A stretch of DNA of 32,000 bases, from NCBI RefSeq assembly GCF_029891685.1, contig NZ_JANQDJ010000081.1:1-32000 (forward strand), in the 5' to 3' direction. The first letter of the stretch is position 1. Each line of letters opens with the position of its first letter. Under the pieces are notes generated by a model, which was not told where the DNA came from, did not search any database, and worked only from the letters and a program-made list of their open reading frames with translations. Source of the DNA: Umezakia ovalisporum Ak1311 (lineage in GTDB: Bacteria > Cyanobacteriota > Cyanobacteriia > Cyanobacteriales > Nostocaceae). Below are positions 10,310 through 32,000 of this stretch, in pieces. The position numbers were made by a program, and so were the translations under genes.

Positions 10310-11125
10310 TCAACTGAATACTCGATGTTCCAAAGAAGGCATTTGACGGCGGACTTGTTCCAGGCGAGAGGGATTAATTTCTGCCATAGCAATTCCCGGT
10401 TTTTCACCAGCATCAGCTAAAATCACGCCCCAAGGGTCAATAATCATCGCGTGTCCGTGGGTGTGGCGACGGTCGTAGTTATTGCCAGTTTGAGCAGGTG
10501 CGATTATATAGGCAGTATTTTCAATGGCTCGTGCTTGTAATAATACTTGCCAGTGGTCTTTGCCAGTAAAGGCAGTAAAGGCAGCAGGTACAAACATCAC
10601 CTCCGCTCCCTGATCTGACAAATGTCGATACAATTCCGGAAAGCGAACATCGTAACAAACAGAAAGTCCTATATTACCAAGTTGTTCCGAGTAATAAACT
10701 GAGGGTAATTCTTCACCGGCTACAACAGTGCTAGATTCTCGATAGGTGTTGCCATCGGGAACGTTAACATCAAACAGGTGTACTTTAAAGTAGCGAGAAA
10801 GTTCTTCCCCACTGGGATCAATGAGGATTGTGGTATTATAAACCTTCCCTGTATCTTCTACGGGAACTGGAAAACTGCCCCCCAAAATGGTAACTTGAAA
10901 GCGTTGTGCCATTTTTTTGATAAATCTTGCACTTTCAAGGTAAATTTCCTCGGCTTGTCCTAGTTTGTCTTTTTCTTCTCCCATAAAAGAAAAGTTTTCT
11001 GGTAACCCAATTAATTCAGCACCTCGACGCACAGCCAGTTCAATTAATTCTTCTGCCTGCACTAAGTTTTTGTGTAAACTCGGCACACTGGTCATTTGAA
11101 TAGCCGCAGCTAAATAAGACTTCAT
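10310..11125 (-). CDS. Carbon-nitrogen hydrolase (nitrilase superfamily, Nit/omega-amidase-like)
   Basis: 271 aa. The Glu-Lys-Cys triad contexts are GLPENF, FKVHLFD and LSVCYDVRFPE. Confidence 0.85.
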   Translation of the reverse strand: MKSYLAAAIQMTSVPSLHKNLVQAEELIELAVRRGAELIGLPENFSFMGEEKDKLGQAEEIYLESARFIKKMAQRFQVTILGGSFPVPVEDTGKVYNTTILIDPSGEELSRYFKVHLFDVNVPDGNTYRESSTVVAGEELPSVYYSEQLGNIGLSVCYDVRFPELYRHLSDQGAEVMFVPAAFTAFTGKDHWQVLLQARAIENTAYIIAPAQTGNNYDRRHTHGHAMIIDPWGVILADAGEKPGIAMAEINPSRLEQVRRQMPSLEHRVFS

Positions 11126-22953: not shown

Positions 22954-24864
22954 TCAAAAGGGAAAAATTACTACCCTATTCTCCAGCATTTCTAAATACT
23001 TTTTCCGGGGATGTTCATTAGCACCAAATACCGTTACCACTTGGTATTTCTCTAAATCTGCAATCCATACAGGGGAAGGAATTACCTCCCGTCTAGTATT
23101 TCTATCGGGAAATGGATAATCTACCCTAACACCACCGCACAAGTTTTTAGCTTCAGTGTAATTTGGTCTTTCTAATTGGTGGAAATATTGATGTAAAATG
23201 TCTAGTGCATATCCCTTGTTACCATCATCTCTATTACTGACAACTATAATTTTACCATTAATATCTAAGGCCTCAAACCAGGTAAAAGAGTTAACTTTAC
23301 CACAGTTCTTTAATTGACGATGATTGAAATTAACCCCTAACCCTTGCAATCCTTGATAAAAAGCTTCTAGTCTTTGTCTAAATAATCTCTGAAATTCCTG
23401 GGGAGTGTTTGGTAGTTTCCAAAATCTATCCTCGGTATCTGGTATAAGGGTAGAACCACGTACATAAGGTCTTGTTTGGCCACGAGAATAACAAGGTCTT
23501 CTTGCACCTTGACCAACACCACCTAAATGAAACATTAACCAAGCTAGATTTTTAGCAAGTTTTTGGAGGTTATTTTTTTGGTTTTCTGGTATCTCCGGAG
23601 AATAGTTTAATGTTAAAGTACCCTCCTGTTCCCCCACAGGATCATTGTTACGTTGAGGTTCTCTTGTAGTTATCCTCCCTTCCAATACCCTCACCATTAA
23701 CCAACCATATTTTTTCTCAGGGGTAATTGTGCCAAAAATTTTACCTTCCCATTCCTGAACTTGTGTAGGGTCTAAAACTCCTAATGCAAAAGTTCTAAAC
23801 CAATAACGCAACATTGATTTAAAAGCTACAGGACGCACTTCCCCATGATTAATTGTATCCGGTCTTAAATTGTTATGGTTATTGATATAAGGTTGACGAA
23901 GATTCCTAAATTTTTGTCCACCGTGAATCAGTTGACCTTGTAAAATAAAATCAACTTGGAAAAATTCACTTTGAGGGGTAACTCTACCTGCGGGATTTAG
24001 TTGACCATAACCACTATTAACTTGAGAACCCACCCCACCCTGTAGTCCAGTAATTAACCAATGTTTGACCTTTTCTAAAATCCCATGATCTTCACAACCA
24101 CTAGCTAAACGTAATCCAATTATAAAGAAAGGTTTTTCTAAACTTAAAAATGGGTTGGGATTAGGACTATATTGTATTGAATTACCTTCCCACTTCCAAA
24201 TATTATTAGCCATGTCCACAGTTAATATATTTGCTGGCCCTTGGTTAGCCTCCGGATAAGCATCGAGAAATACAACTTTACCGGAGCGATGTTCAGGGTT
24301 TTCTCCCTCCAGAGAACCGAACCAAGGCGCAACTTGTTTTTCTGCATCTTTCCATTGAATTTGCTGTTGCGTCACAATTTCTCTAATAGCTTGGGTTCTA
24401 GCCACCCCCCGCAAAGTGCTAGAAGGAATGTATGGTAAACCCAATGCATCAAAAGCAGGTAACAAAATACTCTCTGGTCCCCGATGTCCACCTACTCTGA
24501 TCCGCCAAGGACACTGAACTTTAAAACTATTTTCGGCGATTAATTTTGTGCGCTCAGTCAGTTCTTTTAATCTTTCGCTGTAATTAGCCTGTTCGCAGGC
24601 CATTTGTAATATTTCTAATTTCGTAGAGTCTTTATACTCAGCCTCAGGCCATCGCATCCATCGCAGATATTCCACAAAACTGGCTCCTGAATCTGGTTTG
24701 GGTGGATTTTCTGGATTTATCCAAGGGGAAGGTACAGGAGGTTGGCCACCACCCCCACCACCACCTCGGTTTCCTCTATTACCTCCGTCACCATGAGAAT
24801 TATTTCTAGACTCATTGGTATTAGATTGACTTCCATTCCGTCGTCTAGGTCTTTCAAATGTCAT
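22954..24864 (-). CDS. cmr6: Type III-B RAMP protein, a Cmr6-like N-terminal half fused to a Cmr1-like C-terminal half, with a Gly/Arg/Asn-rich N-terminal tail
   Basis: First half: WRIRVGGHRGPES...LGLPYIPSSTLRGVAR, GKVVFLDAYP, and the G-rich loop GGVGSQVNSGYGQL. Second half: GEVRPVAFKSMLRYWFRTF and the G-loop HLGGVGQGARRP. The start is set at ATG 24864 (MTFERPRRR...), which has AAGGAG ~12 nt upstream and lies 5 nt after the cmr5 stop. Confidence 0.8.
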   Translation of the reverse strand: MTFERPRRRNGSQSNTNESRNNSHGDGGNRGNRGGGGGGGQPPVPSPWINPENPPKPDSGASFVEYLRWMRWPEAEYKDSTKLEILQMACEQANYSERLKELTERTKLIAENSFKVQCPWRIRVGGHRGPESILLPAFDALGLPYIPSSTLRGVARTQAIREIVTQQQIQWKDAEKQVAPWFGSLEGENPEHRSGKVVFLDAYPEANQGPANILTVDMANNIWKWEGNSIQYSPNPNPFLSLEKPFFIIGLRLASGCEDHGILEKVKHWLITGLQGGVGSQVNSGYGQLNPAGRVTPQSEFFQVDFILQGQLIHGGQKFRNLRQPYINNHNNLRPDTINHGEVRPVAFKSMLRYWFRTFALGVLDPTQVQEWEGKIFGTITPEKKYGWLMVRVLEGRITTREPQRNNDPVGEQEGTLTLNYSPEIPENQKNNLQKLAKNLAWLMFHLGGVGQGARRPCYSRGQTRPYVRGSTLIPDTEDRFWKLPNTPQEFQRLFRQRLEAFYQGLQGLGVNFNHRQLKNCGKVNSFTWFEALDINGKIIVVSNRDDGNKGYALDILHQYFHQLERPNYTEAKNLCGGVRVDYPFPDRNTRREVIPSPVWIADLEKYQVVTVFGANEHPRKKYLEMLENRVVIFPF

Positions 24865-24869
24865 TAATT

Positions 24870-25265
24870 TTAGTCTCCTTGAATATCTGAATAAATAGCA
24901 GTAGCCCAAAAACTAAATTCCTGTGCTAAAGCCAAACCTAATCCTGTTAACCCCAAATATTCATCTGTATCCAGATTTTTTAAAGTTGCTAAACCCTGGT
25001 CATTAGCTAAATTCGGTGTTCCTGAAAGTTCTTGTAAACATTCAAAAAATTTCTGCACAACCTGTTTTTTACCCATCATATTTTTGTCTAAAGCCTTTTC
25101 TTCAGCTTTGAGACGCATCATTCCCCAAGTAGAAAGGTAGGTATATAGTTCAACCGCTTGACTTTTTTGTTGCCTTAAACGAACCTCATCTTGATTGGGT
25201 AAAAAACGCAAATTATTTAAAGCATCATAAATTGGTGTGGCCATGGTTCTGGGGTCAAAGGTCAT
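24870..25265 (-). CDS. cmr5: Type III-B small subunit Cmr5
   Basis: A 131-aa helical protein at the canonical position between cmr4 and cmr6. The assignment rests on position and size. Confidence 0.7.
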   Translation of the reverse strand: MTFDPRTMATPIYDALNNLRFLPNQDEVRLRQQKSQAVELYTYLSTWGMMRLKAEEKALDKNMMGKKQVVQKFFECLQELSGTPNLANDQGLATLKNLDTDEYLGLTGLGLALAQEFSFWATAIYSDIQGD

Positions 25266-26107: not shown

Positions 26108-30264
<4,157 letters not shown>

Positions 30265-30529
30265 CAGTAATATTTTTATGTATCCAATGTCGCCATTTTA
30301 AAACCTTAATTCAAGGTTTGTCTATTAACACCAGATATCTCAAATTTTTTTTTACCCAAGCTCAAATGATTTATACGTAAAGGTTTCAGGTATTTATTTA
30401 GAATCATCAACAATATTTTTTCTTCTTTGACATTTGTTACATTTTCTGAAACATTCCACTCATAAATCCTTACCCGGTTTCAACCCACCACCTAGGTTTC
30501 CTTTACCTTAACAAGTTCCCACTGGGGTA

Positions 30530-30639
30530 TTTTCCCCTTCAATTAATTTCTTTAGGAAGTAGGAATTAGTTCATTTTGACCCAGTTCATTTTGACCCAGT
30601 GAAGTTTCCATTGAACTAATATCCCTAGGAAGTAGGAAT
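30530..30639 (-). CRISPR. Two degenerate CRISPR repeats flanking a 37-nt pseudo-spacer (detached trailer end of the array)
   Basis: 30604-30639 GTTTCCATTGAACTAATATCCCTAGGAAGTAGGAAT has 5 mismatches to the consensus. 30530-30566 TTTTCCCCTTCAATTAATTTCTTTAGGAAGTAGGAAT has about 8 differences plus an indel. The spacer at 30567-30603 is a 15-nt tandem duplication. Confidence 0.8.
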
Positions 30640-30873
30640 TTAAGATGAATTAACTTTTAACAATTTCCCATGATGCCAAATGTGTTTGAAACAAAAGCTA
30701 TCACGGTAGGTATTCGGTGTAGAAATCAACCAGTTGAGTTTCTCCCCCAAAGGTAACCTAGGTGTTTATCTATTTCTATATCCTAGGGTAGATGACGAAA
30801 TTCTGTTGTACTCCTTAGTTGCTACAAAAAATCATGTCTATTATTATACCTTTGTCCGAATATTCAGAAAAGT

Positions 30874-31524
30874 ATGGCTAATTGTCCTAATTGTGGTTCT
30901 ACTCACATTCAACTCAACAAGGAAACTCAAGTCAATTGGGGACGAGCCGTTGCTGGTTGGGTTTTATTTGGGATTGTAGGTGGTGCAATAGGTGCAGTGA
31001 CAGGGGAGGCTAAAAATGCTAATGTTTGTATGGATTGCGGTACATCTTGGAAAGCTGAAGATATATATAAAATTCTAGAGGTTATTAAAAAGTTAGCTAA
31101 CATAAAACTAGATTTATCTGAGGAAAAACACCGTTCATTTCTGAATAAATTTATCACCACAATCGGTACTTATATAGAGGAAGTATCTGAAACTGAAAAG
31201 AAAGCAGAGGCATTTGTGACCAAAGCCAAACAAGAGGCGGAAAGTAAATATGTATTTGCATCTGGTTGTGGTTGCTTATTCTTAATATTTAGCATATTTA
31301 CTGCCTTATCGGCTGCCGATATTTCTGGTTTCGCTTTTATCCTGGGTTTATTAGTATTCATAATAGGTTGTTTGATTGATGCTAGTAGATCTAATGCTAA
31401 CAAAGAAAACATTAAGAAAGAAATAGAAATGGCAAAAGCAAAAGCAGAAGAAATGAATATTAACGCTCAAGAAAAACTGAAAGCAAAAGTCAGCCTTTTT
31501 GTGCAGAATAATCCTCTGAATTAA
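30874..31524 (+). CDS. Zinc-ribbon membrane protein (CxxC, hydrophobic segment, CxxC, coiled coil, two TM helices, Lys/Glu-rich coiled coil), function unknown
   Basis: 216-aa ORF. It has C4PNC7 and C52MDC55 flanking WGRAVAGWVLFGIVGGAIGAVTG. Two TM helices lie at about aa 135-180, and the tail is charged (KKEIEMAKAKAEEMNINAQEKLKAK). The ORF is long for this AT-rich sequence, but no homologue was recognised. Confidence 0.6.
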   Translation: MANCPNCGSTHIQLNKETQVNWGRAVAGWVLFGIVGGAIGAVTGEAKNANVCMDCGTSWKAEDIYKILEVIKKLANIKLDLSEEKHRSFLNKFITTIGTYIEEVSETEKKAEAFVTKAKQEAESKYVFASGCGCLFLIFSIFTALSAADISGFAFILGLLVFIIGCLIDASRSNANKENIKKEIEMAKAKAEEMNINAQEKLKAKVSLFVQNNPLN

Positions 31525-31559
31525 ATGACGAGTATAACCAAATATACTAAGGGGTCCTC

Positions 31560-32000
31560 GTTTCCATTCAATTAATATCCCTAGGAAGTAGGAATTTACT
31601 CCTTACTCCTTACTTCTTACTTCTTACTCAGTCGGAAGTTTCCATTCAATTAATATCCCTAGCGAGTAGGGATTCATTCCGACATTTGTAGGGACGTATT
31701 GCAATACGTCCCTACACGAGTTTTCATTCAATTAATATCCCTAGCGAGTAGGGATAATATTAATTTCCCTACGTCCTTTACTGGAAATGTATAGTTTCCA
31801 TTCAATTAATATCCCTAGCGAGTAGGGATAATATTAATTTCCCTACGTCCTTTACTGGAAATGTATAGTTTCCATTCAATTAATATCCCTAGCGAGTAGG
31901 GATTGTTCGAGCAATTTCAGCCAACACTGGTATGCTACAGTTTCCATTCAATTAATATCCCTAGCGAGTAGGGATTTGACATCTACAAAAAGCTTGGTTT
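31560..32000 (-). CRISPR. CRISPR array of 36-nt repeats, continuing past the window edge
   Basis: Repeats lie at 31560, 31638, 31720, 31794, 31868 and 31940. The plus-strand consensus is GTTTCCATTCAATTAATATCCCTAGCGAGTAGGGAT. Spacers measure 42, 46, 38, 38 and 36 nt, plus a partial one. The strand is inferred from the degeneracy gradient (degenerate end on the left) and from the minus-strand repeat ending in ...AATGGAAAC. Confidence 0.9.

Follow-up and report, generated by a model that had tools for sequence, protein, structure and literature searches.

CreTA and CreR are regulatory modules derived from the repeats of CRISPR arrays and lie beside cas operons, and the membrane effectors of type III systems include Cam1, Csx23 and CorA. 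CRISPR arrays can also be interrupted by other DNA. In cyanobacteria, Tn7-like transposons that target arrays enter spacers, in many cases in the slot between the final two repeats (Chacon Machado & Peters 2025, PMC11837452); phage PhiAP1.1, as cited in the same article, integrates into CRISPR repeats. The LITAF/SIMPLE-like domain (PF10601), a zinc-binding monotopic membrane anchor (PMC5095921, PMC5142333), is relevant here for its topology. We describe a type III-B CRISPR array of Umezakia ovalisporum Ak1311 in which a gene encoding a predicted membrane protein of 216 amino acids (aa) occupies the position of a spacer. The array lies at the right-hand end of the first 32,000 nucleotides (nt) of contig NZ_JANQDJ010000081.1, referred to below as the window. 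The likely explanation is that a stand-alone gene was captured, together with its putative promoter, in a spacer position near the trailer end of the array, and was later reshuffled there.

The repeats of this array (array 1) have the plus-strand consensus GTTTCCATTCAATTAATATCCCTAGCGAGTAGGGAT. We denote a repeat with n mismatches to the consensus as Rn, spacers as S and the gene-bearing 920-nt segment as G. The copies at 31638, 31720, 31794, 31868 and 31940 carry 0, 1, 0, 0 and 0 mismatches, and the three degenerate copies carry 3 (at 31560), 5 (at 30604) and 9 (at 30531, aligned without gaps), with GGAAGTAGGAAT common to all three. Read from left to right, the features are as follows.

30531-30566, minus strand: R9, the terminal and most degenerate repeat, aligned with the last repeat of Nodularia
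30567-30603, minus strand: spacer S1, 37 nt, containing a 15-nt tandem duplication of AGTTCATTTTGACCC
30604-30639, minus strand: R5, the R3 variant plus two substitutions, bordering the insert on the cas10 side
30640-31559, plus strand: segment G, 920 nt in a spacer slot, made up of the gene with the region upstream of it and ~35 nt of 3' flank
30819-30847, plus strand: promoter-like site TTGCTA-17-TATTAT, whose end is 27 nt upstream of the ATG (consensus scan, a pattern match only)
30874-31524, plus strand: gene for the 216-aa membrane protein, 100% identical to a hypothetical protein of U. ovalisporum
31525-31559, no strand assigned: post-stop stretch of 35 nt, spacer-sized and mostly without homology to the flank in Anabaenopsis
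31560-31595, minus strand: R3, variant repeat with three mismatches, bordering the insert on the leader side
31596-31637, minus strand: spacer S2, 42 nt, a (TTACTCC)n heptamer microsatellite
31638-32000, minus strand: canonical part of array 1, continuing past the window to ~23-32 repeats and a leader adjoining cas2

The first-pass annotation of this DNA, made from the letters and an ORF (open reading frame) list, had described a 920-nt segment with a 216-aa ORF on the strand opposite to the cmr genes, and its coordinates and counts were essentially correct. It had given the leftmost repeat about eight mismatches plus an indel; the degeneracy stands, and a recount gives nine mismatches without gaps from position 30531.

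The minus-strand repeat ends in ...ATTGAATGGAAAC. This end, the degeneracy that rises toward cas10 and the strain-variable spacers near cas2 together show the direction of array 1: its transcription runs on the minus strand toward cas10, starting from a leader adjacent to cas2. The cas1-cas2 genes lie at the far end of the array, away from cas10, and the related array in Nodularia is also co-oriented with cas10. As both the array and the cmr operon lie on the minus strand, the gene is antisense to both. The cas2-side spacers are wholly different between strains and the gene-side spacers are held in common; judged by the complete leader-side differences, array 1 is active. The two spacers nearest the gene, S1 and S2, are odd 'spacers' for a trailer, one containing a tandem duplication and the other being a microsatellite whose length varies by strain (42 nt in the window, 35 nt in other strains).

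A comparison of six sister strains of U. ovalisporum (L034 to L039) revealed four further arrangements of the trailer end. The layouts below are read on the plus strand from the cas10 side.

Window: R9 S1 R5 G R3 S2 R0 S3 R1 S4...
L034, L035 and L038: R9 S1 R5 G R6 S2 R0 S3 R1 S4...
L036: R9 S1 R5 G R6 S2 R0 S6...
L039: R9 S2 R0 S3 R3 G R3 S2 R0 S3 R1 S4
L037: R9 S2 R0 S3 R3 G R3 S2 R0 S4...

Strains L037 and L039 have identical R3 repeats on either side of the gene and, toward cas10, also a perfect repeat and two genuine spacers. R6, which in L034, L035, L036 and L038 takes the place of the window's R3 at 31560, is chimeric, its 5' part being that of R3 and its 3' part that of R9. The S2-repeat-S3 block is duplicated: in L037 and L039 one copy stands between the gene and cas10, and the block also forms the trailer of a second array of the locus (array 2; ~57 repeats, with the same repeat and orientation as array 1), which begins with spacers S2 and S3 as array 1 does. 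That repeats and trailer blocks undergo homologous recombination at this locus is shown by the duplication of S2-S3, by the chimeric repeat and by the strain-dependent side of S2-S3. Through these rearrangements the 920 nt are identical in six of the six Umezakia assemblies compared; given a cas10 divergence of just 0.07-0.2%, no differences in 920 nt would be expected by chance.

Several spacers close to the gene have features of their own. S3 (31674-31719), at 46 nt, is unusually long, and within it lies a perfect 28-nt palindrome, GTAGGGACGTATTGCAATACGTCCCTAC; both arrays carry this spacer (L034:15889-15934), which is also in mid-array in L037 (L037:20093-20138). S4 shares CCCTACGTCC with S3, and is present twice in succession in the window strain (31756-31793 and 31830-31867) and in L037, and once in L034, L035 and L038. 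The doubled S4 is a unit duplication via repeat recombination.

The ancestral state of the trailer can be read from a Nodularia metagenome-assembled genome, whose Cas10 is 75% identical. It carries 23 repeats of the same family, co-oriented with cas10 and with no gene inside, and this array stops ~250 nt before the cas10 start codon. The array-to-cas10 junction is homologous to window positions 30265-30566: R9 aligns with the last Nodularia repeat, and the ~265 nt that separate the terminal repeat from cas10 are homologous in the two genomes. The old Umezakia repeats retain the Nodularia-like ATTCCTAC start, and the younger repeats have ATCCCTAC. From the junction homology, the R9 alignment and the ATTCCTAC start, it follows that R9 is the ancestral terminal repeat and that the gene lies within the array proper. 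Because the leftmost copy aligns with the Nodularia terminal repeat at a homologous junction, a chance origin of the degenerate repeats is excluded. The earlier proposal that the degenerate copies are relics of a single trailer end, parted by the gene-bearing segment, is thus upheld by both the strain layouts and the Nodularia junction.

The only part of the segment that matches other DNA is 30644-31525, with 92% nucleotide identity to Anabaenopsis tanganyikae CS-531. In that genome the stretch made up of the gene and 230 nt upstream of it lies between purD and an 809-aa ORF, without repeats, and the 230 nt around the promoter-like site are 91% conserved. A related genome with a 95%-identical PurD has a gene for a major facilitator superfamily (MFS) transporter at that place and lacks the gene, so that its presence is variable beside purD too; our search with PurD identified no Umezakia entry. 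Within the 920 nt we found no terminal inverted repeats and no transposase or integrase, the 216-aa ORF being the sole substantial ORF, and the segment junctions showed no duplication. Judged from its sequence, the segment is a discrete putative promoter-plus-gene module. We considered spacer-protospacer recombination as the capture route and rejected it, as the two insert junctions have no sequence in common. An Rfam scan of the window at gathering thresholds gave no matches. The variant repeats that border the insert left and right have a 3' end to which a 17-nt stretch upstream of the gene (30772-30788, ATTTCTATATCCTAGGG) is 82% complementary; the stretch shows lower similarity in the Anabaenopsis copy, and the complementarity is probably due to chance.

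The 216-aa protein belongs to a family of proteins of ~214 aa that are named hypothetical proteins in the source databases, and whose full-length architecture is confined to cyanobacteria. A total of 161 homologues were identified at E<=1e-3, mostly 212-220 aa in length and 40-55% identical, and more than 100 proteins matched at E values from 1e-136 to 1e-45 over 95-100% of the query. Their hosts include Nostocales, Microcystis, Rippkaea, Cyanothece, Chamaesiphon, Pseudanabaenales and others. The family is small, as an exhaustive profile search of 1.84 billion representatives found just 69 clusters at E<1e-30. Residues 1-62 are near-invariant (MANCPNCGS..WGRA.AGW.LFG.VGGA.GAVTGE....C.DCGTSWKA), and the Umezakia protein carries this N-terminal signature (MANCPNCGS...WGRA...GAVTGE...C.DCGTSWKA); downstream of residue 62 the family keeps the architecture and not the sequence. 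The ratio of non-synonymous to synonymous substitution rates (dN/dS) against the Anabaenopsis ortholog is 0.39 at a dS of 0.145, with two non-synonymous and three synonymous changes in the N-terminal module. The homologues, the invariant N-terminus and the dN/dS value mark the predicted ORF as a genuine gene.

The order of elements in the protein is C4xxC7, a Gly-rich hydrophobic stretch of 20-22 aa, C52xxC55 and a helical hairpin with a hydrophobic tip at ~126-172. The two CxxC knuckles enclose A25-G44 in columns that are invariant in 28 sequences, and the hydrophobic stretch between them is a GxxxGxxxG glycine zipper. An AlphaFold2 model with a pLDDT (predicted local distance difference test) score of 72.8 shows short ribbon strands followed by a long helical hairpin (84-145 and 151-212). 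The zinc ribbon, Gly-rich stretch and hairpin described in the first-pass annotation were thus borne out by sequence, alignment and model. Because both knuckles must meet to hold one zinc, the 20-residue stretch could dip into one leaflet only; zinc binding and membrane topology are predictions of this architecture. Residues 3-61 also match the phage families phrog_3845, 2546, 6837 and 24502 at E values of ~1e-6 to 1e-10, and the module is found at the C-termini of many unrelated small non-cyanobacterial proteins. These matches suggest that the N-terminal module is a general membrane-anchoring module.

Searches for known relatives returned little. No Pfam family reached its cut-off for the 216-aa protein: the precomputed labels PF24029 and PF27000 are attached to some members, and in our own Pfam scan PF24029 was below the cut-off and PF27000 was not in the output. 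A profile search of the PDB gave no meaningful match, the protein had no PADLOC match, and neither a tblastn search of phage genomes nor a scan of IMG/VR viral contigs produced matches. We found no report on this locus or protein family in the literature. In Sphaerospermopsis aphanizomenoides (L006:10001-11467) two family copies stand in tandem, the second split into two ORFs, and may include a decaying duplicate in that second copy; a split ORF was also seen in L012 and L020. From the architecture, the patchy distribution and the variable contexts of the family, the protein may act in the membrane as an oligomeric anchor or scaffold, or as an accessory protein that perturbs it.

To survey the genomic neighbourhoods of the family, 30 loci from species-representative genomes and 41 from metagenomes were examined with flanks totalling ~0.6 Mb. 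Arrays were sought with a k-mer finder and a sensitive two-copy scan, both of which recovered the window's array as a positive control. Neither scan detected a CRISPR array near a homologue in the 71 loci, the two-copy scan giving no CRISPR-like pairs apart from a mini-array on plasmid pNPM10, and tblastn gave no match to cas10, cmr3-6, cas1, cas2, csx18 or CARF-WYL in the 71 loci. No conserved neighbours were detected beyond local synteny. Among the 124 nearest neighbours (Pfam and PADLOC), the most frequent families were gidA, purD, kinases and scattered toxin-antitoxin and methyltransferase genes, and included no cas core genes; a few copies neighbour PIN-domain, AbiE or integrase genes. 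The gene family is patchily distributed in cyanobacteria and has no link to CRISPR-Cas. The first-pass annotation had itself regarded homologues spread through cyanobacteria without enrichment near CRISPR-cas as refuting a role in the system, and this is the distribution that we observed.

The possibility that arrays were hidden at contig ends near homologues was rejected. In Dolichospermum and Cuspidothrix the contigs break where they do because of the 5S ribosomal RNA (rRNA) end of an rrn operon, and the other ends examined had no array. In these genera (L004:1-120, L014:1-150 and L019:60-210) the homologue lies directly downstream of an apparent 5S rRNA end, as read by eye. Array-like matches in Cronbergia sp. 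(L002) were also rejected as CRISPR: they are clusters of an AATCCTG-rich 81-nt tandem repeat, located on both sides of the homologue (L002:8619-9925 and 10670-10727).

Taken with the anatomy of the array, these observations lead us to favour the capture of a stand-alone gene. Capture would have taken place in an ancestor of the sequenced U. ovalisporum strains, and homologous recombination between repeats and duplicated trailer blocks (S2-repeat-S3) would then have shifted spacers across the gene and produced the chimeric repeats. Recombination is the most likely route of both the capture and the later reshuffling. That the arrays of U. ovalisporum take up other DNA is supported by L037, in which a 3,390-nt insert (L037:16345-19806) interrupts array 2 between two perfect repeats and encodes a phosphonate-binding protein (385 aa) and a VapE-like protein (422 aa), a second, independent instance of genes in a spacer slot. 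For the protein, we propose that one zinc on the two CxxC knuckles would clamp the glycine-zipper hairpin into the cytoplasmic leaflet with a LITAF-like topology, and that the second, hydrophobic helical hairpin would span the membrane, its two long charged helices forming a cytoplasmic stalk.

A number of points weigh against this account. Every Umezakia assembly on record carries the gene, the 920 nt being 100% identical, and no gene-less Umezakia array was found among them; the gene could have been retained by selection in its array context. The exact bracketing by identical repeats in L037 and L039 would also fit an integrase-type event. A homologue with 48% identity lies 1.26 kb from a four-repeat mini-array on pNPM10 of Nostoc sp. 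N6 (L044:10499-12654), a 21.9-kb linear plasmid with a protelomerase, on which the homologue is near the end and an integrase gene lies between it and the mini-array. The repeat of that mini-array, ATTGCAATTAACCTAAATCCCTATTAGGGATTGAAAC, is of a different family, and one case in ~70 is no enrichment. The N-terminal hydrophobic stretch is poorly modelled by AlphaFold2 (pLDDT <50 at residues 24-46), and the Foldseek comparison suggested in the first-pass annotation, in which the AlphaFold2 model was run against the PDB and BFVD, gave no structural analogue at E<0.05, the matches being non-significant coiled-coil or helical-hairpin structures. Finally, both the mechanism of capture and the cellular role are matters that we infer.

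Other explanations ascribe to the gene a function within the CRISPR-Cas system. The first-pass annotation had proposed a type III accessory or effector protein, and lineage-specific co-option would make the membrane protein a true type III-B effector in Umezakia, triggered by Cas10 signalling and gating or damaging the membrane. The location of the gene between cas1-cas2/array and cas10, its retention in every assembly, the GGDD motif of Cas10, the predicted membrane-embedded structure with glycine zipper and helical hairpin, and the existence of Cam1, Csx23 and CorA are all in keeping with this idea. We nevertheless judge it very improbable, as none of the other 71 loci is cas- or array-associated, the nearest ortholog adjoins purD, the protein lacks a ligand-sensor domain, whether CARF, SAVED or other, and has no PADLOC match, and the gene has its own promoter-like site on the strand opposite to cmr. 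Moreover, the observation that the locus has no recognisable effector holds inside the window and fails for the locus as a whole, in which a CARF+WYL/Csx1-like gene (396 aa; PADLOC E=1.5e-70) is located outside the window, just past array 1. The gene might alternatively be wired to CRISPR by its position. Read-through of the array would yield RNA antisense to the gene, and transcription of the gene would run into the array. In type III systems, a target match with full pairing of tag and anti-tag permits RNA cleavage and blocks Cas10 activation; the mRNA that reads into the array would then be cut by Cmr while Cas10 stayed silent, and a potentially harmful membrane protein would be held down. 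We find such wiring highly improbable, and have similarly little faith in a weaker version in which array transcription regulates the gene by antisense interference. In the form of a CreTA-like guard or CRISPR-regulated gene, a CRISPR RNA from the 31560-31595 repeat and the adjacent 35 nt would match the mRNA at its 3' end with perfect complementarity, and Cmr would cut this mRNA, an arrangement to which we attach minimal probability. The same slight chance applies to its extension, in which the mRNA also pairs with the 8-nt tag so that Cas10 is silent and losing cmr or the array is punished, provided that an excess of the protein is toxic. The scan revealed no terminator-like site between the stop codon and the next repeat (a pattern match), which makes read-through into the array plausible; the tag AUGGAAAC can pair along its full length with the anti-tag GTTTCCAT, and degenerate repeats beside a cas operon recall CreA/CreR. 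However, this is pure geometry, a property shared by any antisense array transcript, R3 weakens the repeat hairpin and renders processing uncertain, toxicity is without evidence, and homologues live without CRISPR in ~70 loci. Spacer S1 has no partial target in the window, where it showed no second match at <=3 mismatches, nor did the window contain any CreTA-type pseudo-spacer with a partial match, the only complementarity being the trivial antisense kind of the repeat-adjacent 35 nt.

The remaining alternatives concern how the DNA entered. Spacers are measured to length by Cas1-Cas2, which inserts them at the repeat nearest the leader. If Cas1-Cas2 or an off-pathway integration had placed the 920 nt at an internal repeat as a 'giant spacer', duplicating that repeat, the gene would come to lie between two identical variant repeats with canonical neighbours, as in L037 and L039; the array is active, its leader-side spacers are completely strain-specific, and the 3,390-nt segment in array 2 of L037 also sits between perfect repeats. 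This origin is improbable in our view, since the site is at the trailer, unlike the leader-proximal integration of a length-measuring Cas1-Cas2, GGAAGTAGGAAT is also in the terminal repeat, so that shared variants need no duplication, and the duplicated S2-S3 blocks and chimeric repeat indicate homologous recombination. We also hold little hope for a remnant of an array-targeting mobile element (Tn7-like, insertion sequence, or a repeat-integrating phage or plasmid) of which the cargo gene alone was left, an origin that is very doubtful. Cyanobacterial Tn7-like elements do enter spacers with the repeats intact, often between the last two (PMC11837452), a family member is found on a linear protelomerase plasmid with an integrase and mini-array, and the N-terminal module occurs in phage protein families. 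On the other side, the 920 nt contain no transposase or integrase, terminal inverted repeats or target duplication, the published array-targeting elements are without cargo (PMC11837452), phage genomes and IMG/VR contigs gave no match, and in Anabaenopsis the sequence is a chromosomal intergenic-plus-gene module.

The type III-B locus in which the gene is embedded is visible as a whole on U. ovalisporum contigs in at least six assemblies. Its order is sfsA and cmr6-5-4-3-cas10 (minus strand); the gene (plus strand); array 1 with 23-32 repeats; cas2, cas1 and csx18 (minus strand); the CARF+WYL gene; and array 2. The two parts that flank the array features listed above are as follows.

27259-30264, minus strand: cas10/cmr2, first gene of the cmr2-3-4-5-6 operon, GGDD present
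L034:12552-19938: right-hand continuation with cas2, cas1, csx18, the CARF+WYL gene and array 2

A promoter-like site for the cas10 operon was identified at 30324-30295 by the consensus scan, as a pattern match. On the minus strand, cas10/cmr2 is followed by cmr3, cmr4, cmr5 and a 651-aa Cmr6-type fusion. The product of this last cmr gene (22954-24909) has two RAMP regions, with two matches to Cmr6 models and a weak one to Cmr1, and is a candidate Cmr1/Cmr6-type fusion. The genes called in the 20-kb locus included no cas6.

Overall, the gene has the appearance of a passenger that was captured and not of an effector of immunity, in agreement with the fallback suggestion of the first-pass annotation that a cargo gene is sheltered in the array. 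If this is right, the locus is a clean natural example of a CRISPR array that keeps an ordinary gene stably in a spacer slot, and of recombination between repeats and trailer blocks that can rearrange array ends within one species. It would be relevant to models of array evolution and to annotation pipelines that split such arrays or label embedded genes as 'cas-associated', and it cautions against guilt by association in cas loci. Attention is also drawn to a small uncharacterized cyanobacterial family and to a module of LITAF-like topology that recurs in phage proteins. Were the positional wiring true, the locus would be a type III counterpart, based on a protein, of the CreTA guards by which CRISPR-Cas loci become addictive.

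Compared with CreTA/CreR, the Umezakia locus similarly has degenerate repeats around a non-spacer sequence upstream of an effector operon, and a repeat-adjacent RNA that would be complementary to a neighbouring transcript. It differs in that its payload is a conserved gene for a 216-aa protein and not a small toxic RNA, in that the system is type III, and in being known here from sequence alone. Like the type III membrane effectors, the product is a small predicted membrane protein encoded inside a type III locus with a GGDD Cas10; unlike them, it carries no ligand domain (CARF, SAVED or other), is not tied to an operon and does not recur with type III loci. The resemblance to LITAF noted in the first-pass annotation holds for topology, as a CxxC, ~20-22 hydrophobic residues and a second CxxC would place both ends of the stretch on the same membrane face. 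It does not extend to sequence: PF10601 was absent from the Pfam hmmscan output at E<=10, and hhalign against a human LITAF sequence entered by hand gave a probability of 2%. Unlike in LITAF, the hydrophobic part in Umezakia is a GxxxGxxxG zipper, and the module is N-terminal and followed by a predicted transmembrane helical hairpin. The zinc-ribbon/glycine-zipper module is common to the protein and to the phage families phrog_3845, 2546, 6837 and 24502; in the small non-cyanobacterial and phage proteins it is C-terminal, after unrelated domains, whereas in Umezakia it is N-terminal.

There is a close parallel with the interrupted arrays (PMC11837452), in which foreign DNA likewise occupies a spacer slot at the trailer end, with the repeats intact and the leader-side spacers untouched. 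Unlike the Tn7-like and PhiAP1.1 cases, the Umezakia insert is without mobility genes, element ends or target duplication. The interruption of a CRISPR array is a known event; what is unusual here is that a single conserved host-type gene without mobility functions, accompanied by its putative promoter, has been stably kept in an array and reshuffled within it by recombination between repeats.

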